From an uncultured Parvibaculum sp. (lineage in GTDB: Bacteria > Pseudomonadota > Alphaproteobacteria > Parvibaculales > Parvibaculaceae): DNA of 64,000 bases. Location: assembly GCA_964518885.1 (NCBI GenBank), contig CAZFHW010000001.1, forward strand, positions 685-64,684. The letters are read 5' to 3'. A program made the translations under genes and the position numbers. Positions 33,909 through 64,000 of this stretch are shown piece by piece; position 1 is the stretch's first letter, and every line of letters starts with the position of its first letter. Under the pieces are notes generated by a model. The model was not told where the DNA came from. It saw only the letters and a program-made list of their open reading frames with translations, and did no database searches.

Positions 33909-34481
33909 TCAAAAATAGCGAATAGACATGATAATGGGCGCGCACCACAACAGACGATCTATGTACCTTTCCTTGGAACCGGGTTGGAGCGGCACCAGGC
34001 AGTACCGCTTGGAATTTTTTGGACCACGAACAAGACGCCGCAACAAGACGGTGCCGTCTTTAAGTCCAACGAGGCAATCGCGGCCAAATCCCTGCTCCAG
34101 TTTTTCGTTTTCGAAACGCGCACCAACCAGTAACTCTCCTGATCGAAAGGGGCCGTGATCCTGTGTAAGACGGACGGCTACCGGACGGACGGCCGGAACG
34201 CGCAAGACAAAACCATCAGTATTTTCAACGGATTTAGACGATACAGTCCCATCTGCTTCGACCCGACCCAGCATCTCAATCCGCTCTGGAGAAGGTTCGT
34301 CAATCAGGTCACTCATCGGAACTTGCAAGATCGTTGCGAGTGGTTGTAGCCAATCCACCGATATCCTAATTCCCTCGGTTTCAAGCCGCGAAATGGTCGC
34401 TGCTGTGGTCCCGAGCCTGTCGGCGAGGTCAGTCTGCGTGATCCCCATCTGTCGCCGGTAGTGTCGAATTCTGTTTTTCAC
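33909..34481 (-). CDS. rogA: XRE-family repressor with S24-like C-terminus (RogA-like GTA repressor)
   Basis: NRIRHYRRQMGITQTDLADRLGTTAATISRLE HTH; divergent from the gafY/gafZ-like genes as in Caulobacter. Confidence 0.7.
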   Translation of the reverse strand: MKNRIRHYRRQMGITQTDLADRLGTTAATISRLETEGIRISVDWLQPLATILQVPMSDLIDEPSPERIEMLGRVEADGTVSSKSVENTDGFVLRVPAVRPVAVRLTQDHGPFRSGELLVGARFENEKLEQGFGRDCLVGLKDGTVLLRRLVRGPKNSKRYCLVPLQPGSKERYIDRLLWCAPIIMSIRYF

Positions 34482-34642: not shown

Positions 34643-35077
34643 ATGCTTGAATTGCCCTCAAATGCTTTATGCGAACGCGACGAAAAACTAACACGACAAG
34701 GTATTTTGACCACAAAGGCGGCGGCACGCCGAGCGGCGGTCTGGTCCCAACAAGTCGCGGAAATCAAGCTGACCTGTGATGTTGTTGCGAGAGTTTACAA
34801 TATTTTGCCTGCAGCGCTTTATTCGCCTACACGCGGCGAGGCATATGTCGCCCATGCTCGCCAGTTGGCTATGTATCTTGCTCATGTGACGTTCGGCCTC
34901 AGCCTTGGGGCGGTAGGGCGTCATTTTAGACGAGACAGAACCACCGCAGCCTATGGTTGCCGTCAGGTTGAAGATCGGCGCGATAATCCCAGTTTTGATT
35001 TCATGCTGGACCGTCTGGAACAAGCCCTAGCGATTTTGTCTGCCGTCCGCTTTGGAACGTCTCAGAAAATGCAATAG
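34643..35077 (+). CDS. gafY: DnaA domain IV-like HTH protein (GafY-like GTA activator)
   Basis: TRGEAYVAHARQLAMYLAHV..GLSL..VGRHFRRDRTTAAYGCRQVEDRRD; RBS AGGAGG. Confidence 0.8.
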   Translation: MLELPSNALCERDEKLTRQGILTTKAAARRAAVWSQQVAEIKLTCDVVARVYNILPAALYSPTRGEAYVAHARQLAMYLAHVTFGLSLGAVGRHFRRDRTTAAYGCRQVEDRRDNPSFDFMLDRLEQALAILSAVRFGTSQKMQ

Positions 35078-35088
35078 GGGAATGGGCT

Positions 35089-35973
35089 ATGGAAATCGCT
35101 GCGGGAGAACTACGTCGGGAGGGTTTGCGGCTTTTTCGACGTCTGAGGGAGCCGGGGCATTATGTCCGGCATTTGGATGACGGTAAGCCGCAAGAGGCAT
35201 CAGGGGCCTTGTTTGGTCCCCGTAATAGCTGGCGCCATCCGGTCTTGAGGGTAGATATGAGGATCGTTAGTGCGTTGCACAGGACGGATCTCTTGCGGCG
35301 CGAAGTAGCCTATGTGCCAGCGCAGGGCTTAGAAAGCGTTCCAGAATGTTACCTCGTCAGCGCAGCTGGTGAAGCGTGGTGGCGCAGGCAGGCTGGAGGC
35401 ACCGAGCCTTTTCGAGCCCAGCACCAGCTTTTAGGCGAGTGCGTGATTGAGGAGCCGGGGCGGGGCGTGGTGCGGCGCCAGGTCAATTTGGGGGAAACCC
35501 CCTTAGGGTGGCTCCGCAGACGCAAAGGGCCAGATGGTCGCCCCTTTTTGTCAGACATTGAAATGGAAGCGGGGGAACGATTGAGGCGCGACTATACGCT
35601 GGCCGCTCTCGGTTCCCGTGTTACTGCCGATTGGTCTGCGATGGCCGCTCACGTCGATCAAAGTAGATCTGGGCCTTCATCTGGGGGCGACGTATCTCTC
35701 GCGGCATTGGATGCCCGGCGGCGGGTAGAGCGCGCACTGGCCAGTGTGGGGCCAGGATTGGGCGATGTGCTTTTAGAGACGTGCTGCTATTTGTCAGGTC
35801 TGGAACAGGCGGAACAATTGCTTGGCTGGCCACAGCGGTCAGCAAAAATCGTGCTGAAAATTGCTCTGGCGCGCATTGCCATCCACTATGGCCTCGGGCT
35901 CACGGGGACACCAAAACAGGGGCTCCATGTCTGGCGGATGGGGGGAGACGGCAAACATCAGCACGGGAGGTGA
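35089..35973 (+). CDS. gafZ: DUF6456 protein (GafZ-like, GafA C-terminal homologue)
   Basis: ETPLGWLRRRKGPDGRPFL...AGERLRRDY, LGDVLLETCCYLSGLE.AE..LGWPQRSAKIVLKIAL. Confidence 0.85.
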   Translation: MEIAAGELRREGLRLFRRLREPGHYVRHLDDGKPQEASGALFGPRNSWRHPVLRVDMRIVSALHRTDLLRREVAYVPAQGLESVPECYLVSAAGEAWWRRQAGGTEPFRAQHQLLGECVIEEPGRGVVRRQVNLGETPLGWLRRRKGPDGRPFLSDIEMEAGERLRRDYTLAALGSRVTADWSAMAAHVDQSRSGPSSGGDVSLAALDARRRVERALASVGPGLGDVLLETCCYLSGLEQAEQLLGWPQRSAKIVLKIALARIAIHYGLGLTGTPKQGLHVWRMGGDGKHQHGR

Positions 35974-54083: not shown

Positions 54084-54174
54084 GTCATTGCCGGACTTGT
54101 TCCGGCAATCCAGGAGCTGCAAACAGAAGCTTTAATGTGTGGCCCTGGACCCCCGGAACAAGTCCGGGGGTGAC
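54084..54174. repeat. REP doublet (inverted pair of GTCA-type palindromes)
   Basis: GTCATTGCCGGACTTGTTCCGGCAATCCA ... TGGACCCCCGGAACAAGTCCGGGGGTGAC; both arms fit GTCA-N3-CCGGACTTGTTCCGG-N3-TCCA. Confidence 0.85.
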
Positions 54175-54220
54175 AGTTTTTGCGGTGTCATTTTTGCTTA
54201 GAGATAGCGCTGCCGCACGC

Positions 54221-55503: not shown

Positions 55504-57504
55504 TCATCTACGCAAAGTCTGGCCGCCGCGTCGAAAGCCCGGGCCAGGGTTGAGTTGCGCCCGGTGTGTCTGGCGGAACAGTTCGGACAAAGAAGTGTAA
55601 AAACGGCGGATCTCAATCTGTTCCTGGCTCGTGCCCGCGGCTGTCTGGACCGGCCGCCCGATGGGGGCAGGTCGCCCGCCCGCCAGATCTGTCATGGGGC
55701 GCCCCCGGTGGACCGACTTCATGAAGCTCGCCCACGCCCGCGCGCTGATGCCCCCGCCTTGCGCCCCCACCATCGGGGAGGCGTCGTCATTGCCAAACCA
55801 GACACCCGCAACCTGATCGGCGGTGTAGCCGATAAACCAGGCGTCACGCCCTTGCTGACTGGTACCGGTCTTGCCCGCCGCCGGGCGACCGCCGATGGCC
55901 GCCTGTCGTCCCGTGCCTGTCAGGATCACCTGATAGAGCAGATAGTTGAGGGAGCGCGCCGCACCCCGCGCCACAATTCGCGTGGCGAGTGATTGATGTT
56001 CATGCAGCACCTCACCATCCGGCGTCAGAATGCGGGTGATGCCAAACGGTGTTGCCCGGTACCCGCCATTGGCAAAGACCGCATAAGCCGACGTCAGATC
56101 AAGCAGGTTGACCTCTTCCGTGCCCAAGGCAATGGAAGGGTGAGAGGCCAGCGGGGAGGTGATGCCAAGTCGCTCCGCTACCTCGATCACCCGCAGGCGT
56201 CCAACCTGTTCGGAGAGACGGACGGCAACGGAATTGACGGAATCTTTCATCGCATCAAGCAGGGTGATTTTTCCCTGCGGCTGCCCGGTACTCTGGGGCG
56301 ACCATCCATCGACAAACACAGGGGCGTCACTTATCAGGCTTTCTGGTGTCAGCCCCTGTTCAATAGCAGCCAGATAGACAAAGGGTTTGAACGCAGAGCC
56401 CGGTTGCCGCTCGGCCTGAGCTGTGCGGTTAAATTGACTTTCCAGATAGTTGCGTCCGCCCACCATCGCCCGCACGGCGCCGTCCGGGTCGAGCGCAACA
56501 AGCGCGCCTTGCGTTGGGGAAGGCCCATCATCGGTCTCCTGATCCAACAGAGCATCGGCAATGGCCAGTTCGCCTGCCGCCTGGCTGACCGGATCAAGGG
56601 TGGTTTCGATAATCAATTGACCGGTGACGCCGGGCAGGAGAATGGCAACTTCCTCTGCGATCCAGTCGACAAAATACTGCGATCCTCCGCGAGGGCTGCG
56701 TTCTGTAATGGTTGCCGGCGTTGCCCGAGCGGCGAAAACCTCACCCTCGGTCAGAATATTATTGTCCACCAGGCGCCGGAGCACCTGTTCTGCCCGCGAT
56801 TGCGCGCGTGCCAGATCATTGGTGGGCGCAAATCGGGAAGGGGCTTTGATGAGCCCCGCCAGCAGAGCGGCCTCTGCCAGGGAGACATCGCGCACAGAGT
56901 GATCGAAATAATGACGTGAAGCGGCTTCCACGCCGTACGATCCAGCACCCATATAGATGCGGTTCAGGTACAAGGTGAGGATTTCGTCTTTGGAATATTT
57001 GTCCTCCAGCCAGAGCGTTACCAGCACCTCGCGTGCTTTGCGCCACAAGGTTCTCTCCCTGCTGAGGTAAAGGTTTTTGGCGAGCTGCTGGGTGATACTT
57101 GATCCCCCTTGCACAATGCGGCCTGCGCGCACATTGGCCCAAAGGGCCCGTCCAATCCCGCGAAAATCAAACCCGAAATGCGTGTAGAAACGCCGGTCTT
57201 CGGTACTCAATACCGCCTGAATGAGATAGTCGGGCATTTCGTCAAGAGGCACGATGGCCGCATACCGTCCGCCGCGACTGGCGATCTCGTCACCCTCTCG
57301 GTCAAGCACGGTGAGCGCAAACGCATCCGGACCCAATGGCCCCAGAAGCTGCCGCTCGAGCTTTGGTAAGGTGTCGAGCACAAGCACGCCACTCAAAACG
57401 AAGAGGACAAACAGCACACCTCCTATGAGCCGCGGCCAGATAGACCGGCGCGGTGTGTGCGAATGAGGCACATCTATTTCGTCTTGCTCTCGGGCCACTG
57501 ACAT
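55504..57504 (-). CDS. Class A penicillin-binding protein (PBP1A family)
   Basis: [37 protein letters not shown]. Confidence 0.93.
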
Positions 57505-57686
57505 TTTTCTCCCAGTCAGGCACAAACGTGCCGAAACGGCACACTACGGGCGTCTTTTCACGCCTACCTGGGCTCAACCCGCAAGCCTCATGCCGTGGTG
57601 AGGGGCGCTCGCGCTTGTGCTATTGGCCGGAAATCTGGCATAGACTGGCAAATCCCCGACAGACCAGTTTGGGGCGAGGAGTGAGT

Positions 57687-58145
57687 ATGGAAGAGAAGCC
57701 CTTTTGGCAGACAAAGAGCCTCAGCGAGATGACCCGCCAGGAGTGGGAGTCGCTGTGCGACGGCTGTGCAAAATGTTGCCTCATCAAACTGGAAGATGAA
57801 GACACGGGCGATCTGGAATACACCGACATCGCGTGCAACCTGCTGGACTGCGAGAACTGCCGCTGCACGGATTATCCCAACCGTGCCACCAAGGTGCCCG
57901 ACTGTGTTGAACTCACCCCGAAAAACGTGCACCAGCTTACCTGGATGCCATCGACCTGCGCTTACCGTCTGCTCGCGGAAGGCAAGGACCTGCCCTGGTG
58001 GCACCCGCTGGTGAGCGGTGAGGAGGACACCGTTCATCTGGCTGGCATCTCCGTGCGCGGACGCGTGTTGCTCGAGGATGATGTGGACATGACCGACATT
58101 GAAAGCCGCATCGTAAGCTGGCCGGAACAACCACTGGCAGATTGA
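57687..58145 (+). CDS. ycgN: YcgN/UPF0260 cysteine-cluster protein
   Basis: [16 protein letters not shown]...[20 protein letters not shown]. Confidence 0.92.
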
Positions 58146-58309
58146 GCACACAATAAATTTCAGTCGCGACCTTGACATCGCAACGATTGAAACCATCTAT
58201 TTACTCATCTCCAGAAGTGCGCCCCCAGGATAGCGTCCCCGGGACACCATCCCGCAAGCACCTCTTCCGAAGATAATCGAGACACTCCGACATTTTGAAA
58301 GCGAGCCTC

Positions 58310-58846
58310 ATGACAGAGGACGACCCGAAGGTGATCCCGCCTGCGCGTGAGCCCGACTGGGCACACATTGCCCGCGTCTACCAAGGCGAGGAACCTCTGG
58401 AAAAGATCGCGGGTCACTACGGTCTCTCAGTACAAAAAGTCTCTGCTCATGCGCAAGCGCAGGGCTGGCCGTTGCGCAAGTACCGCAGTGCCCGGACTGA
58501 AAGTGCCACAGGACAGAAACGCCAGGACCTAGCAGCGTTGATACACCGCCTGACGGGCCTTGTGGAACGTCAGATCAAGGAAATTGAAACCAGACTTTGT
58601 GAAGCAGGGGAGGCGCGTGATCAGGAGCGCGACGCCCGAACGCTGTCCAATCTGACACGCACGCTCGACAAGCTGGTGGAACTGAAACGAGGCGCCGAGG
58701 ATGACAGGGCTGCCAAAGCGCAACGTGCCCGCGAAACGGCAAAACGAAAAGGAAGCAAGGCTGATGGAGAGGCAATGCGAGCCCATCTTGCACGCCGCCT
58801 GTTTCGGCTCGCTGCCCAAGCCAACAGTTCACGCGTTTCTGGATAG
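58310..58846 (+). CDS. GTA small terminase subunit (putative)
   Basis: N-terminal HTH (WAHIARVY.G..PL.KIA..YGLS), coiled coil, ERDARTLSNLTRTLDKLVEL; first gene of the cluster, overlapping terL. Confidence 0.7.
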   Translation: MTEDDPKVIPPAREPDWAHIARVYQGEEPLEKIAGHYGLSVQKVSAHAQAQGWPLRKYRSARTESATGQKRQDLAALIHRLTGLVERQIKEIETRLCEAGEARDQERDARTLSNLTRTLDKLVELKRGAEDDRAAKAQRARETAKRKGSKADGEAMRAHLARRLFRLAAQANSSRVSG

Positions 58847-60071
58847 CCTGTCGGGCAGAGAGCTTGCCTTTCTCGCCCACGATTGGCGCTTCTGGGCGCG
58901 TCCCTCACAATGTGAACCAGAAGGGTCGTGGACAACCTGGCTCATCCTGGGTGGACGCGGAGCGGGCAAAACCCGCGCCGGGGCGGAATGGGTGCGGGAA
59001 CAAGTCCAGTGCGGGAACGCGGGGCATCTGGCCTTGATCGGCGAGAGTTATGCCGAAGCACGCGAAGTGATGGTGGAAGGTATTGCCGGGCTGCGCGCGT
59101 TGGGACCGAGTGACGAGCGCCCGCGCTATGAAGCAACGCGGCGACGTCTGCTCTGGCCGAACGGCGCCGTGGCAACGCTCTTTTCCGCCAGCGACCCGGA
59201 GGGTCTGCGCGGGCCACAATTTGATGCCGCCTGGAGTGATGAGGCTGGCAAGTGGCCGGACGCCGAAGCCGCCTGGGCCATGTTGCAGTTTGGATTGCGT
59301 CTGGGGGAGCACCCAAGACAGGTGGTGACAACAACCCCGCGCGCTGTCCCGCTCATCAAGAAGCTGTTGGCCGACGACACGGTCCGCGTCACCCGCGCAA
59401 CGACGTACGACAATCGGGCGAACCTGGCAGACGCCTTCTTCTCGACGGTGATCAAAACCTATGAGGGAACAAGGCTCGGACGTCAGGAACTGGACGGTGA
59501 ATTGCTGGAGGATGATCCGGACGCCCTTTGGTCGCGGAGCATGATTGAGAAGACGCGCTGCGGCGCGGTTCCAGAACTGGTGCGCACAGTGGTGGGGGTG
59601 GATCCCCCGGCAACGTCCGGCGCGGGCGCGGACGAGTGCGGCATCGTGGTGGTTGGCATTGCGGCAGACGGTCGGTTTTACGTGTTGGCGGATCGCTCGC
59701 GCGGACGCCTGAAACCGGCAGACTGGGCGCGCCGGGTGGCGGGTGCATATGACGCGTTTGAAGCAGACCGCGTGGTGGCGGAGGTCAATCAGGGCGGCGA
59801 AATGGTAACCGCGGTGCTGCAGCAGGTGGCGCCTCATCTGCCTATCCGTCAGGTAAGGGCAACCCGGGGCAAGTGGGTGCGCGCAGAACCCATCGCAGCA
59901 CTTTACGAGCAGGGGCGGGTGCGCCACGCCAAGCCCTTTGCCGAACTGGAAGACCAATTGTGCAATTTCACCGGAACCGGAGGCAAAAGCCCCGACCGGC
60001 TGGACGCCCTCGTCTGGGCGATCACGGATTTGATGCGAGGGGCCGGCAACCCGACCATCAGGCGACTCTAA
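58764..60071 (+). CDS. terL: GTA large terminase (RcGTA g2 homologue)
   Basis: DWRFWARP.Q, GGRGAGKTRAGAEW, LRGPQFDAAWSDE, TTTPR, GVDPP, SPDRLDALVWA; start uncertain (58701/58764/58788). Confidence 0.92.
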   Translation: MERQCEPILHAACFGSLPKPTVHAFLDSLSGRELAFLAHDWRFWARPSQCEPEGSWTTWLILGGRGAGKTRAGAEWVREQVQCGNAGHLALIGESYAEAREVMVEGIAGLRALGPSDERPRYEATRRRLLWPNGAVATLFSASDPEGLRGPQFDAAWSDEAGKWPDAEAAWAMLQFGLRLGEHPRQVVTTTPRAVPLIKKLLADDTVRVTRATTYDNRANLADAFFSTVIKTYEGTRLGRQELDGELLEDDPDALWSRSMIEKTRCGAVPELVRTVVGVDPPATSGAGADECGIVVVGIAADGRFYVLADRSRGRLKPADWARRVAGAYDAFEADRVVAEVNQGGEMVTAVLQQVAPHLPIRQVRATRGKWVRAEPIAALYEQGRVRHAKPFAELEDQLCNFTGTGGKSPDRLDALVWAITDLMRGAGNPTIRRL

Positions 60072-60086
60072 CTCTAAGGGAACGCA

Positions 60087-61304
60087 ATGAACGAGACACA
60101 GACCGCAAACCAAACAGGAACGGGCCTCTGGCACCGCATGTTTGGACGGAGGAGCCAACAGCCCGGGCCTGTGCATGTGAAGGCGAGTGCAACCGGCTCG
60201 CTGATTGCCCTCAGTTCACTGGGACAACCGGTATGGACCCCGCGTGACTACGACCAGCTCGCCCGGGAAGGCTATGAGCAAAATGCGGTGGCCTTCCGCT
60301 GTGTCCGCATGATTGCCGAAGCGGCGGCATCCGTGCCGTGGCTTTTGTATGAAAGGGACCGCGAGCTTGAGGTGCACCCGTTGCTCACGCTTTTGCAGCG
60401 ACCTAATCCGGGGGAGGGAGGTGCCGACCTGCTGGAAGCCTGGTACGGATATTTGCAGGTTTCCGGCAATGCCTATCTGGAAGCGGTTCGCATTGGAGAG
60501 CAGGTGCGCGAGCTTCATGTTCTGCGGCCCGACCGGATGAAAGTTGTGCCAGGCCAGCGCGGTTGGCCGGAGGCTTACGAATATACCGTCAATGGGCGGA
60601 CGGTGCGGTTCCTCGATGAGCCGGACCATCCAATCCTGCATCTCAAAGCCTTTCACCCGACCGACGATCACTATGGCCTTTCCCCCCTGGAAGCCGCCGC
60701 GAGGGCGATAGACATTCACAATGCCGCGGGCGCCTGGAACAAGGCGCTGCTCGACAATTCGGCGCGTCCTTCCGGGGCCTTGATCTACAAAGGCGCGAAC
60801 GGGGACCAGACCCTGACGAACGAACAGTTCGATCGTCTGAAGCTTGAGTTGGAAGAAAACTATTCCGGTGCGGGAAATGCCGGGCGCCCGCTGCTGCTGG
60901 AAGGCGGGCTGGATTGGAAACAGATGGGGCTTGCGCCCAAGGATCTGGATTTCAACGAGACGAAAAATTCGGCGGCGCGTGAAATTGCTCTGGCCTTCGG
61001 GGTGCCGCCCATGTTGTTGGGTATTCCCGGCGACAACACGTTTGCCAATTACAAGGAGGCAAATCTGGTGCTGTGGCGTCAGACCATCCTGCCGCTGGTG
61101 CGCAAAACCGTGACCGCCCTGTCCAACTGGCTGGTGCCGCGCTTTGGCGAGGGGCTGCGCCTTGATGTGGATCTCGACGCCGTGCCCGCCCTGGGTGTTG
61201 AGCGCGACGGCCTGTGGGCACGTCTGAAGGATGCAGACTTTCTGAGTGAAGACGAGAAACGCGCTGTCGTTGGCTATGAACCTCGAAGGCGGACCTCATC
61301 ATGA
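60087..61304 (+). CDS. GTA portal protein (HK97 family, g3)
   Basis: WTPRDY..LAREGY..N.V..RCVRMIAEAA, LRPDRM, GLSPLEAA, NAGRPLLLEGGLDWK, TYANYKEAN-like motif. Confidence 0.93.
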   Translation: MNETQTANQTGTGLWHRMFGRRSQQPGPVHVKASATGSLIALSSLGQPVWTPRDYDQLAREGYEQNAVAFRCVRMIAEAAASVPWLLYERDRELEVHPLLTLLQRPNPGEGGADLLEAWYGYLQVSGNAYLEAVRIGEQVRELHVLRPDRMKVVPGQRGWPEAYEYTVNGRTVRFLDEPDHPILHLKAFHPTDDHYGLSPLEAAARAIDIHNAAGAWNKALLDNSARPSGALIYKGANGDQTLTNEQFDRLKLELEENYSGAGNAGRPLLLEGGLDWKQMGLAPKDLDFNETKNSAAREIALAFGVPPMLLGIPGDNTFANYKEANLVLWRQTILPLVRKTVTALSNWLVPRFGEGLRLDVDLDAVPALGVERDGLWARLKDADFLSEDEKRAVVGYEPRRRTSS

Positions 61305-61576
61305 GCCATGATGACAATGGCTACGAAACAGAAAGCCGGTGGCATCTGGACAGGCGTGTGCCCCTCGCACTGATTATGGCGATCCTCATCCAAACCGCTG
61401 GCGCACTCACCTGGGCAGGCGCGGCAACGGAACGGATCAATCAGCTGGAACGCCAGGTAACGGAGGGTGGTGATCTCGGCGAGCGCACCGCCCGGCTTGA
61501 GGAGCACAGTGTTTTCATGCGCGCAGCACTGGAGCGCATAGAGCGGAAACTGGACCGGGTGATTGCTGGCGAGTGA
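61301..61576 (+). CDS. GTA g3.5-like small membrane/coiled-coil protein
   Basis: WHLDRRVPLALIMAILIQT TM segment, ERTARLEE..ERIERKLD; ATGA overlap with the portal stop. Confidence 0.75.
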   Translation: MSHDDNGYETESRWHLDRRVPLALIMAILIQTAGALTWAGAATERINQLERQVTEGGDLGERTARLEEHSVFMRAALERIERKLDRVIAGE

Positions 61577-61603
61577 CCGCGATCGAACGAAGAGAATTTG
61601 GAT

Positions 61604-61636
61604 GGCGCTTTTCGATAGGTGAAGAGCGCCTTTTTT
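61604..61636 (+). terminator. Intrinsic terminator inside the GTA operon
   Basis: GGCGCTTTTC-GATAGGT-GAAGAGCGCC (10 bp, one G.U) followed by TTTTTT, 15 nt before the protease ATG. Confidence 0.8.
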
Positions 61637-61651
61637 GTGACTGGGAGAAAC

Positions 61652-62353
61652 ATGCAGACACATCGGTCAATCGACCCAGAGCTGAAATCGGAACAGGGAC
61701 CAGGAGAAACCAAACGGGCGTCATTCAATATTGAACATGTGGATGAAGCTGGCGCCTTCGAAGGTTATGCCAGTCTTTTTGGAGCCGAAGATCTGGGTCA
61801 CGATCTTGTTCAGCGCGGTGCCTTTCGCGCGAGCCTTCTCAAACGGGGCGCGGCGGGTGTGCGGATGCTGTTTCAGCACGATCCGGGCGCACCCATTGGT
61901 GTGTGGGATGAAATTCGAGAGGATGCGCGCGGGCTTTATGTGCGCGGTCGCCTCACCCTTGATGTGGCTCGCGCCCGCGAAGTTCATGCGCTCATGAAAG
62001 CCGGCGCGCTGGATGGACTGTCCATCGGGTTTCATACGGTGACAGCTGTGCGTGATGCCGGAACAGGTATCCGACGGTTGCTCGAGATAGATTTATGGGA
62101 AATTTCCATTGTGACTTTCCCCATGCAGCCCGGTGCGCGGGTGGCCACGGTAAAGGCCGGGGTCCTGCCAACGGCGCGAGAACTCGAACGCTGGCTCCTG
62201 CGGGATGCAGGCTTCAGCAGACACCAGGCCCGCGCGTTGATTGCGGGTGGATATAAGGCGGCACTGACCCCGCGGGATGCGGGCCCAGCCGACGTCGACC
62301 TTGCTGGCCTTGCCCGGACCATTCGGGTCGCGGGCGAGTGCTTTCTTCATTGA
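61652..62353 (+). CDS. GTA prohead protease (HK97 family, g4)
   Basis: FEGYASLFG..DLG.D.VQRGAF, MLFQHD, EDARGLYVRGRL, DGLSIGF, LWEISIVTFPM. Confidence 0.93.
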   Translation: MQTHRSIDPELKSEQGPGETKRASFNIEHVDEAGAFEGYASLFGAEDLGHDLVQRGAFRASLLKRGAAGVRMLFQHDPGAPIGVWDEIREDARGLYVRGRLTLDVARAREVHALMKAGALDGLSIGFHTVTAVRDAGTGIRRLLEIDLWEISIVTFPMQPGARVATVKAGVLPTARELERWLLRDAGFSRHQARALIAGGYKAALTPRDAGPADVDLAGLARTIRVAGECFLH

Positions 62354-62398
62354 CCTTGAAACCAGTCACAACACGTCGCGATGACGAAGGAGACGACT

Positions 62399-63739
62399 AT
62401 GCCTCTCATGAGGAAGAGCAATGTGGGCCGCATCGGCCATACGTTGAACACCCAAACCTCCCACCCCAACGGCCGAACCCGCCAAAAGGGGGCGCCGGAG
62501 CGAAAGAGTACCGATCTGGGAAGCCCGGCGGTGCACGATGTACGGGATGCTTTTGATGAATTCATGACCCGCTTCGAAAGCTTCAAGCAGGCCAATGATG
62601 ATCGGCTGCGGGAGCTCGAACAAAAAAAGACGGCGGATGTGGTCACCGTTGAAAAAGTAGACCGCCTGAACGCGGCACTCGATCTGCAGCAGAAAACGGT
62701 GGATGGTCTCGCTCTCTCGCTTTCTCGGCCAGAAAGGGGCGAGCTCTCGACCCTGACCCCGGCGTCACGCGACCACAAAATGGCGTTCGACACCTATGTG
62801 CGTCGCGGCGAGACGGGCACGTTACGCGCGCTGGAGGCAAAAGCACTGAGTGCGCAGTCAGACCCAGATGGCGGTTATCTGGTGCCATCAGAAACCGAAC
62901 GCCTGATCGACCGGGTGGTCTCGGAAGCATCGCCCATTCGCACTATTGCCGGTGTCCGGCAGATCGGCGCGGCATCTTACAAGAAACCGTTTGCAACCAC
63001 AGGGGCCGCAACCGGCTGGGTGGGCGAAACTGAACCGCGCGCGCAGACCGACGGCCCCAGGATTTCCGAACTCGAATTTCCGGTGATGGAACTCTATGCC
63101 ATGCCAGCGGCCACCTCGACGCTGCTGGACGACAATGCCGTCAATCTGGACCAGTGGATCGCCGAGGAAGTCCAAACCGCTTTTGCGGAACAGGAAGGTG
63201 CTGCCTTTGTGTCCGGGGATGGGGTGCGCAAACCGCGCGGGTTCCTCTCCTATGACACCGTCGACAATGCGAGCTGGGCCTGGGGCAAGGTTGGTTACAT
63301 CGCAACGGGCGCATCGGGCGCCTTCCCGGTGAACAACCCTTCTGATGTGCTGCTCGACCTAGTCTATGCGGTGAAGTCCGGCTACCGGGCCAATGCGCAT
63401 TTTGTCATGAACCGGCAGACCCAGTCTCAGATCCGCAAGTTCAAGGACGCCGACGGCCACTATCTCTGGCAGCCAAGTCTTGCGGCGGGCGAAGCTCCAA
63501 GACTGATGAATGTCCCCATCGCGGAAGCTGAAGACATGCCCGATGTCGGAGCCGACGCCTTTTCCATGGCCTATGGCGATTTCCGGCGGGGATATCTGAT
63601 TGTGGACCGGCTGGGCATTCGGGTTCTGCGCGATCCCTATTCCGCAAAACCCTATGTCCTTTTCTACACCACCAAACGTGTTGGCGGCGGCATCCAGAAT
63701 TTCGAAGCCATCAAGCTTCTGAAATTCGGCACATCATAA
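62399..63739 (+). CDS. GTA major capsid protein (HK97 fold, g5)
   Basis: DGGYLV, SPIRTIA, FPVMELYAMPAAT..LLDD, GDG..KPRGFL, LRDPYSAKPYVLFYTTKRVGG; RBS AAGGAG before ATG 62399. Confidence 0.95.
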   Translation: MPLMRKSNVGRIGHTLNTQTSHPNGRTRQKGAPERKSTDLGSPAVHDVRDAFDEFMTRFESFKQANDDRLRELEQKKTADVVTVEKVDRLNAALDLQQKTVDGLALSLSRPERGELSTLTPASRDHKMAFDTYVRRGETGTLRALEAKALSAQSDPDGGYLVPSETERLIDRVVSEASPIRTIAGVRQIGAASYKKPFATTGAATGWVGETEPRAQTDGPRISELEFPVMELYAMPAATSTLLDDNAVNLDQWIAEEVQTAFAEQEGAAFVSGDGVRKPRGFLSYDTVDNASWAWGKVGYIATGASGAFPVNNPSDVLLDLVYAVKSGYRANAHFVMNRQTQSQIRKFKDADGHYLWQPSLAAGEAPRLMNVPIAEAEDMPDVGADAFSMAYGDFRRGYLIVDRLGIRVLRDPYSAKPYVLFYTTKRVGGGIQNFEAIKLLKFGTS

Positions 63740-63750
63740 GGAGGTTCTTC

Positions 63751-64000
63751 ATGCGTGATCTTCATTCAAACCTCGGTCTCATCCAGACCCTCGACCCGGC
63801 GGTGACAAGCGCAAGCCGGGCGGGTGCCCCTGTCGACCGACAGGGCTTTGAAAGCGTGGAGCATGTCGTGCTCATCGGCATCAGTGGTGACACTCTGTCC
63901 GGGGTGAATTCGATCTCCCTGCAGCTCGACGAGAGCGAAGACGGCAGCAGTTGGTCACCCGTCATCAATGACAGTCATGTGCTGGGCGCCTCCATTGACG
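63751..64000 (+). CDS. Putative capsid cement/decoration protein (3' truncated by window)
   Basis: RBS AAGGAGG; MRDLHSNLGLIQTLDPAV...VDRQGFESVEHVVLIG...LQLDESEDGSSWSPV...VLG; open to window end; not in ORF track. Confidence 0.6.
   Translation, partial: MRDLHSNLGLIQTLDPAVTSASRAGAPVDRQGFESVEHVVLIGISGDTLSGVNSISLQLDESEDGSSWSPVINDSHVLGASID

Follow-up and report, generated by a model that had tools for sequence, protein, structure and literature searches.

A conserved terminator-like hairpin between g3.5 and the prohead protease gene of an RcGTA-like cluster in Parvibaculum

The window analysed here, which is the whole 64,000-nt stretch from an uncultured Parvibaculum sp., ends within an RcGTA-like head-tail cluster. 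The following genes of this cluster were identified:

58310-58846, + strand: terS/g1-like gene, first gene of the cluster (phrog_1206, terminase small subunit, E 5.8e-6), conserved in relatives
58701-60071, + strand: large terminase, terL (Pfam/PHROGs/NCBIfam)
60087-61304, + strand: portal protein (Pfam/PHROGs/NCBIfam)
61301-61576, + strand: g3.5-like gene of 91 aa, the last gene before the putative terminator, with 51-92% identity in relatives
61652-62353, + strand: HK97-type prohead protease (TIGR01543), the first gene after the putative terminator
62381-63739, + strand: major capsid protein, MCP (Pfam/PHROGs/NCBIfam)
from 63751, cut by the window end, + strand: conserved 143-aa gene after MCP, here called gX (phrog_5707, unknown function)

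The terS-like and terL frames overlap by 146 nt when the longest terL ORF, from ATG 58701, is taken. The contig ends 84 nt beyond the window, and the remaining part of the cluster is found on other contigs. In the closest relative, the downstream genes are those for the g6 connector, g7, g8, the g9 tail tube, GTA-gp10, DUF2460, hub, NlpC/P60 and a 1317-aa g15. The canonical RcGTA order does not include the 143-aa gene. Behind this gene lies a strong hairpin, GCGGACGGGGGAGGGCTCCCGTCCGC, that lacks a T-run (63751-64000 together with contig C184:1-230), and the same post-MCP spacer of relatives harbors REP-like palindromes of up to -86 kcal/mol.

A gap of 75 nt separates the stop of g3.5 (61576) from the ATG of the protease gene (61652), and an intrinsic-terminator motif lies within it, directly followed by the translation signals of the protease:

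61604-61614, + strand: 5' arm of the hairpin, GGCGCTTTTCG
61615-61619, + strand: loop of 5 nt, ATAGG
61620-61630, + strand: 3' arm of the hairpin, TGAAGAGCGCC
61604-61630, + strand: whole hairpin, with an 11-bp stem, a GC-rich base (GGCGC/GCGCC) and a 5-nt loop, dG -15.8 kcal/mol
61631-61636, + strand: T6 tract (U-tract of the putative terminator), 0 nt after the stem and followed by GTG
61643-61654, + strand: protease SD GGGAG (61643-61647) and ATG 61652, in the block TTTTTTGTG(A/C)C(T/C)GGGAGAAACATG conserved in the genus

The sequence-only reading had described this structure as a 10-bp GC-rich hairpin plus U6. The U6 was found as described, but the stem is 11 bp long, the top G-U pair having been omitted; six of its pairs are G-C, concentrated at the base, three are A-U and two are G-U. 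The placement that it gave, between g3.5 and the prohead protease and about 3.3 kb into the cluster, agrees with the coordinates (3.29 kb from the terS-like start at 58310, and 3.4 kb downstream of the promoter block described below) and with the gene identities from Pfam, PHROGs and NCBIfam. The hairpin starts 27 nt past the g3.5 stop, in what should be untranslated RNA, so that ribosomes would not melt the stem, and 6 nt separate the end of the T-tract from the protease SD. The element thus combines what is expected of an intrinsic terminator, namely a GC-rich stem of about 5-14 bp, a loop of 3-8 nt, a U-tract of at least 5 and an untranslated position. Among the terminator-like sites listed by a consensus scan of the + strand from 54 to 64 kb, it is the strongest by stem length. 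On the minus strand the stem has no T-run, which rules out a terminator in that orientation. GTG 61619 was dropped as protease start in favor of ATG 61652 with its conserved SD. An attenuator-type alternative pairing, between an upstream GAAGAG and the CTTTTC of the 5' arm, exists in the window and in L113; it is weak, unconserved in relatives with other stems, and was rejected. No Rfam family matched anywhere in the window.

The hairpin energy was calculated with ViennaRNA on the hairpin alone, and this hairpin is also the only structure in the centroid of the 84-nt spacer. The energy of the whole spacer fold is unexceptional relative to shuffles (z = -1.14); the significance of the element rests on the combination of hairpin and T-run, on its position and on its conservation, and not on the bulk energy of the spacer. 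Such an unremarkable fold would suit an inverted repeat that arose by chance, or else a REP-like or mobile repeat, without any function in the operon, as would the fact that REP-like palindromes are frequent between genes in these genomes and, in some relatives, occur in this very spacer. To estimate the chance expectation, a scanner was used that required a stem of at least 6 bp with at most two unpaired stem bases, a loop of 3-8, dG <= -9 and at least 5 T of 7. It found 810 matches on both strands of the 3.15-Mb assembly, of which 65 are as strong as the present element (dG <= -15, at least 6 T of 7). Genome-wide, similar motifs typically lie 22-59 nt after same-strand stops, as judged from crude longest-ORF gene calls. 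Forty dinucleotide shuffles of the window gave four such strong matches in total, i.e. 0.1 per 64 kb on both strands, which speaks against a chance origin. The element is single-copy in both the window and the assembly, which rules out a REP/MITE-like dispersed or mobile repeat, and no tandem or direct repeats were found in 57500-64000.

Clusters from 20 genomes of the same genus or family, the region upstream of the protease gene from 9 more, and the window make up a sample of 30. The order terL-portal-g3.5-protease-MCP is kept in all relatives sampled, and in 27 of the 30 family genomes, which represent at least three genera (g1, g2, and g5), the ribosome site of the protease gene is directly preceded by a hairpin with T5-7. 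A strict scan recovers 26 of these 27; the other one, L124, has a weaker stem with an internal loop and a bulge, followed by T6. The element is missing from three genomes (L123, L129, and L180), where REP-like insertions or a deletion are found at the site, and it is therefore dispensable in some lineages. In relatives without REP insertions, the hairpin starts 14-45 nt past the g3.5 stop; where REP-like palindromes occupy the spacer (L124, L130-L132, L177-L183), the putative terminator still adjoins the protease gene.

This constancy of position is accompanied by variation in sequence. Twenty-two hairpins were compared, 19 from the family and 3 from distant loci, and every sequence is different. 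Folded one by one, they have 6-12 pairs, loops of 3-7 and dG values from -10.5 to -21.9, and they are followed by T-runs of 5 (2 cases), 6 (14 cases) or 7 (6 cases). Only the basal GCGC/GCGC pairs are common to them, the upper stems being different and yet predicted to pair. The covariation argument is drawn from these per-sequence folds because MAFFT/RNAalifold captured only 6 conserved basal pairs, 2 of them with compensatory changes, and because base-anchored counting of pairs mixes registers. As far as predicted folds can tell, the stem sequence drifts, whereas pairing and T-run are kept. The position-conservation check proposed in the sequence-only reading was thus answered in its favor, with the same site occupied by different stems. 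A scan of 20 relative clusters, of which 18 are complete from terS to g15, found no other sense-strand terminator motif that recurs. The gX/g6 spacer harbors very stable hairpins or REPs, but mostly without a T-run, as in the copy of this genome, so that the T-run between g3.5 and the protease gene appears specific to this site and looks selected. One position in 27 of 30 genomes, with a drifting stem and an invariant T-run, brings the idea of a chance or REP-like repeat close to refutation, and it is hardly credible any longer. The sequence comparisons instead make it very probable that a conserved, functional terminator-like RNA element is located here.

An RNA element of this shape could also serve another role. 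A hairpin with a U-tail is a generic Hfq module, and the structure might accordingly be the Hfq-binding 3' end of an sRNA derived from the 3'-UTR of g3.5, or an S1-type translation enhancer for the protease. The short distance of 6 nt between the U-tract and a strong SD would fit such a role, and so would the conservation, in the genus, of the whole block that runs from the T-tract to the ATG. The T-tract-to-start distance is 15 nt in the genus. In other genera, the T-run is found 12-45 nt from the SD or start, and hairpin and T-run persist despite this variable spacing, which argues against a role in translation of the protease; the lack of any Rfam match and of any sign of an sRNA also weighs against this explanation, which we regard as improbable.

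Whether an intrinsic terminator at this site would matter for the cluster depends on where transcription starts. One promoter-like block was recognised, upstream of terS:

58171-58219, + strand: conserved GTA promoter block, with CTTGACA (-35), AACGAT, CATCTAT (-10-like) and the near-invariant CATCTCCAGAA

In the window it reads CTTGACA-TCGCAACGATTGAAAC-CATCTAT-TTACT-CATCTCCAGAA. The block is conserved upstream of terS across the genus, as well as in another genus of the family, and its -10-like CATCTAT resembles TATCTTT, the mapped -10 of the Caulobacter PgtaT promoter. Between the hexamers, the block AACG(A/C)T... is conserved, with the form ATCG-CAA-CGAT found only in the window and its closest relatives. 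The near-invariant CATCTCCAGAA constitutes a second CATCT-type element, 5 nt after the -10-like CATCTAT and at about the transcription start. The whole promoter block is tandemly doubled in L114, L116, L118-L120, L123, and L125.

The composite motif occurs once in the assembly, at the head of the cluster, and a second GafYZ-type promoter upstream of the hairpin was rejected on this basis; CATCTCCAGAA by itself has three matches in the genome, and the other two have no same-strand gene start nearby. A promoter after the T-run was also ruled out, as the 6-45 nt left before the SD or start are too few for a promoter and a leader. With no room downstream and a single promoter copy upstream of terS, transcription from the protease gene to g15 should have to cross the element, unless a start site that escapes recognition lies inside it, and RNA polymerase would have to pass it for any particle to be made. 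The claim that it is placed so as to block protease, MCP and everything downstream is borne out by this arrangement. The housekeeping gene ycgN (57687-58145) is co-oriented with the cluster and lies directly before the GTA promoter, an arrangement that is conserved in the genus. No terminator was found between ycgN and this promoter in the window or in most relatives; therefore read-through from ycgN should enter terS, terL and portal, and the first stop that it meets would be the site between g3.5 and the protease gene.

A candidate factor for passage through this site is encoded elsewhere in the window:

34643-35077, + strand: gafY-like gene with a DnaA domain-IV HTH (PF08299, E 3.6e-15, 56 bits)
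35089-35973, + strand: gafZ-like gene (DUF6456; PF20057, 173 bits), candidate processive anti-terminator
33909-34481, - strand: XRE-type HTH repressor gene, rogA-like by position, divergent from the gafY/gafZ-like pair

As a control, the DUF6456 model was run on 14 genomes, among which only Caulobacter vibrioides gave a match. Of the 36 other family genomes, 35 have a DUF6456 gene, and in those relatives for which coordinates were compared it is separated from the GTA cluster by 26-32 kb. In Caulobacter crescentus, the binding site of GafZ lies between the -35 and -10 of the cluster promoter; GafZ moves along with RNAP and NusA/G/E, and lets a fraction of polymerases past terGTA and past the E. 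coli rrnB T1 intrinsic terminator (PMC11150451). The read-through of a GTA-cluster terminator by Caulobacter GafYZ, which had been named in the sequence-only reading, is thus a real precedent. The present locus resembles CcGTA in having a one-promoter head-tail cluster with an internal terminator motif downstream of the promoter, adjacent but separate gafY- and gafZ-like (DUF6456) genes, and a divergent repressor gene. By contrast, terGTA follows immediately on gtaT, the first gene, and consists of three GC-rich direct repeats of 150 bp (Tran & Le 2024, PMC11150451), whereas the present cluster has a single hairpin with T6 that separates g3.5 from the protease gene, 3.3 kb from the cluster start. 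A terminator of the terGTA type was ruled out, since the 57500-64000 region lacks tandem or direct repeats and neither the window nor the relatives have a sense terminator between terS and terL. No clear conserved counterpart of the Caulobacter ZBE palindrome was recognised in the -35/-10 interval of the promoter block.

By analogy with Caulobacter, the reading that we favor, although with modest confidence, is that of an intrinsic terminator acting as an internal lock that is opened by a GafZ-modified polymerase. The putative terminator would split the GTA operon into a 3.3-kb packaging part (terS, terL, portal, and g3.5) and a part with head, tail and remaining genes (protease, MCP ... g15). 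As in Caulobacter, the conserved GTA promoter would be the loading site of the GafZ homologue, whose gene lies 26 kb upstream, and the RNA polymerase so modified would read through the terminator, so that the particle genes are expressed. Unmodified polymerase, coming from basal promoter activity or from ycgN read-through, would stop after g3.5, and the terminator would in this way constitute a second lock on capsid and tail expression. We infer both termination at the element and its override by GafZ, and GafZ-dependent read-through is a reasonable expectation at this locus. A conserved terminator inside the operon means that an anti-termination factor, probably the GafZ homologue, would most likely be needed for GTA particles.

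Anti-terminators that are loaded at a promoter are familiar from phages. The late operons of phages lambda and P21 are controlled by the Q protein, with a qut site at PR' and with tR' and downstream terminators. There, too, a promoter-loaded processive anti-terminator passes intrinsic terminators in a structural operon, the present one being phage-derived, and GafZ would play that part here. However, tR' lies directly after the promoter and before the structural genes, whereas four genes precede the putative terminator of the Parvibaculum cluster. The repeated -10-like sequences at and after the GTA promoter, CATCTAT ... CATCTCC, are reminiscent of the sigma-dependent pause elements at which Q-type anti-terminators are loaded. 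GafZ has no sequence similarity to Q, and a structural likeness of GafZ/GafA to Q21 has been argued only in one preprint (bioRxiv 10.1101/2024.11.20.624540). The Bartonella BaGTA is a further system in which a GTA structural locus is gated by a terminator, opened in this case by the Q-like anti-terminator BrrG (Korotaev et al., bioRxiv 10.1101/2024.11.20.624540). The likeness lies in a structural locus placed behind a terminator, its opening by an anti-terminator being proposed by analogy for the present cluster. The two differ in that BaGTA has an independent GTA origin, that its terminator lies in a long leader before the first gene, and that BrrG is unrelated.

Loci outside the family were also surveyed. 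In 11 of 77 other Hyphomicrobiales loci, the 150 nt upstream of the protease gene contain a hairpin (dG <= -9) that adjoins a T-run; four of these 11 are clear cases (L009, L019, L067, and L070). In a class-wide sample of 40 loci, three carry an analogous hairpin, and the DUF6456 gene is absent from the genomes of two of these three distant loci (G182 and G114). The layout at G183 (...GGGGCGCTTTTTTTATGTCTGGAGACAAGATG), one of the three, matches that of the genus. As a separate observation, the DUF6456 gene of G183 lies just 5 kb from the protease gene. None of the 4 nearest phage-collection records has such a hairpin, and an ancestral phage feature is thus not supported. Fully mapped Hyphomicrobiales clusters have a strong (dG <= -12) intergenic sense terminator motif between terL and 800 nt past MCP in 21 of 60 cases. 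Its position is typical of the lineage: Martelella has it just before portal, several Rhizobium/Pararhizobium have it some 450 nt upstream of the protease gene, and in 14 clusters it follows MCP. The Martelella loci L007, L012, L016, L017, and L025 have a strong sense terminator motif between terL and portal, about 50-70 nt before portal, such as GGCCCCGGTTTTTCCGGGGCT followed by TTTTTGT. These Martelella clusters harbor neither g3.5 nor a hairpin before the protease gene, their internal terminator motif being placed differently.

The absence of a GafZ-like gene from two distant genomes with an analogous hairpin is one of several observations that would suit a simpler explanation, namely a leaky attenuator or mRNA-end element that terminates partially and has no dedicated anti-terminator. 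Intercistronic hairpins can set segmental mRNA stability, as in the Rhodobacter puf operon. The element would then also, or mainly, shield the 3' end of a message running from terS to g3.5, or the 5' end of a processed message covering protease, MCP and gX, and give rise to segmental stabilities. In keeping with this, a second strong hairpin or REP follows gX, so that protease-MCP-gX is bracketed by structures; the stems are moderate (dG -10.5 to -21.9), and three family genomes do without the element. A T6 hairpin of -15.8 kcal/mol may also be leaky enough to need no factor. The puf-type hairpins share with the present one a location between cistrons of one operon, where they could bound a stable RNA segment, but they have no obligatory U-tract. 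A stabiliser needs none, whereas every element compared at the present site has T5-7 and most gX/g6 hairpins have no T-run. Plain attenuation would moreover lower the expression of capsid genes relative to portal genes, the opposite of particle stoichiometry. Since capsid is needed in excess over portal, stoichiometry offers no argument for plain attenuation, although it is no proof of anti-termination. Finally, this genome has a gene homologous to that of an anti-terminator whose processive action is proven (PMC11150451). Taking these points together, we regard the attenuator or mRNA-end element as possible but rather unlikely, and keep to the GafZ-opened lock as the preferred reading.

The idea of GTA anti-termination is already known, and what the present site adds is a new example that is well conserved; no paper on a terminator between g3.5 and the protease gene was found. 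To our knowledge, GTA anti-termination has been demonstrated only in Caulobacter, where the terminator is of an unusual repeat type, and in the Bartonella GTA, which is unrelated, and we know of no demonstration for RcGTA-like clusters in general, for which it has been proposed. A canonical terminator in the middle of the operon, kept family-wide together with a conserved gafYZ module, lends independent support from comparative data to the view that the mechanism is general, and one hairpin with one T-tract is a simple and clean test object. A wider generalization, which we put forward as speculation, is that Hyphomicrobiales RcGTA-like clusters generally carry at least one intrinsic terminator whose position shifts (leader, before portal, between g3.5 and protease, or after MCP), with two-stage expression in the family. 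If true, terS, terL, portal and g3.5 would be reachable by ordinary polymerase, including ycgN read-through, and capsid, tail and later genes only by GafZ-modified polymerase. Processive anti-termination of the GafZ/GafA type would then be a universal, ancestral requirement of alphaproteobacterial GTAs, with the terminator as a commitment checkpoint. The data also suggest that the position of the lock differs between lineages, which bears on predicting the genomes that have inducible, functional GTAs.

Two further structures of the window deserve mention. A strong hairpin at 62307-62341 (dG -23, tail TTTCTTC) lies within the protease gene at its 3' end, 10 nt short of the stop; it is shared with the closest relative, L113, alone and is probably no conserved signal. 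At 54145-54176, the REP-like palindrome GACCCCCGGAACAAGTCCGGGGGTGACA recurs in GTA spacers of relatives, between gX and g6 in L114, L118, and L119 and between g3.5 and the protease gene in L123, and it looks like a dispersed repeat family of the genus.
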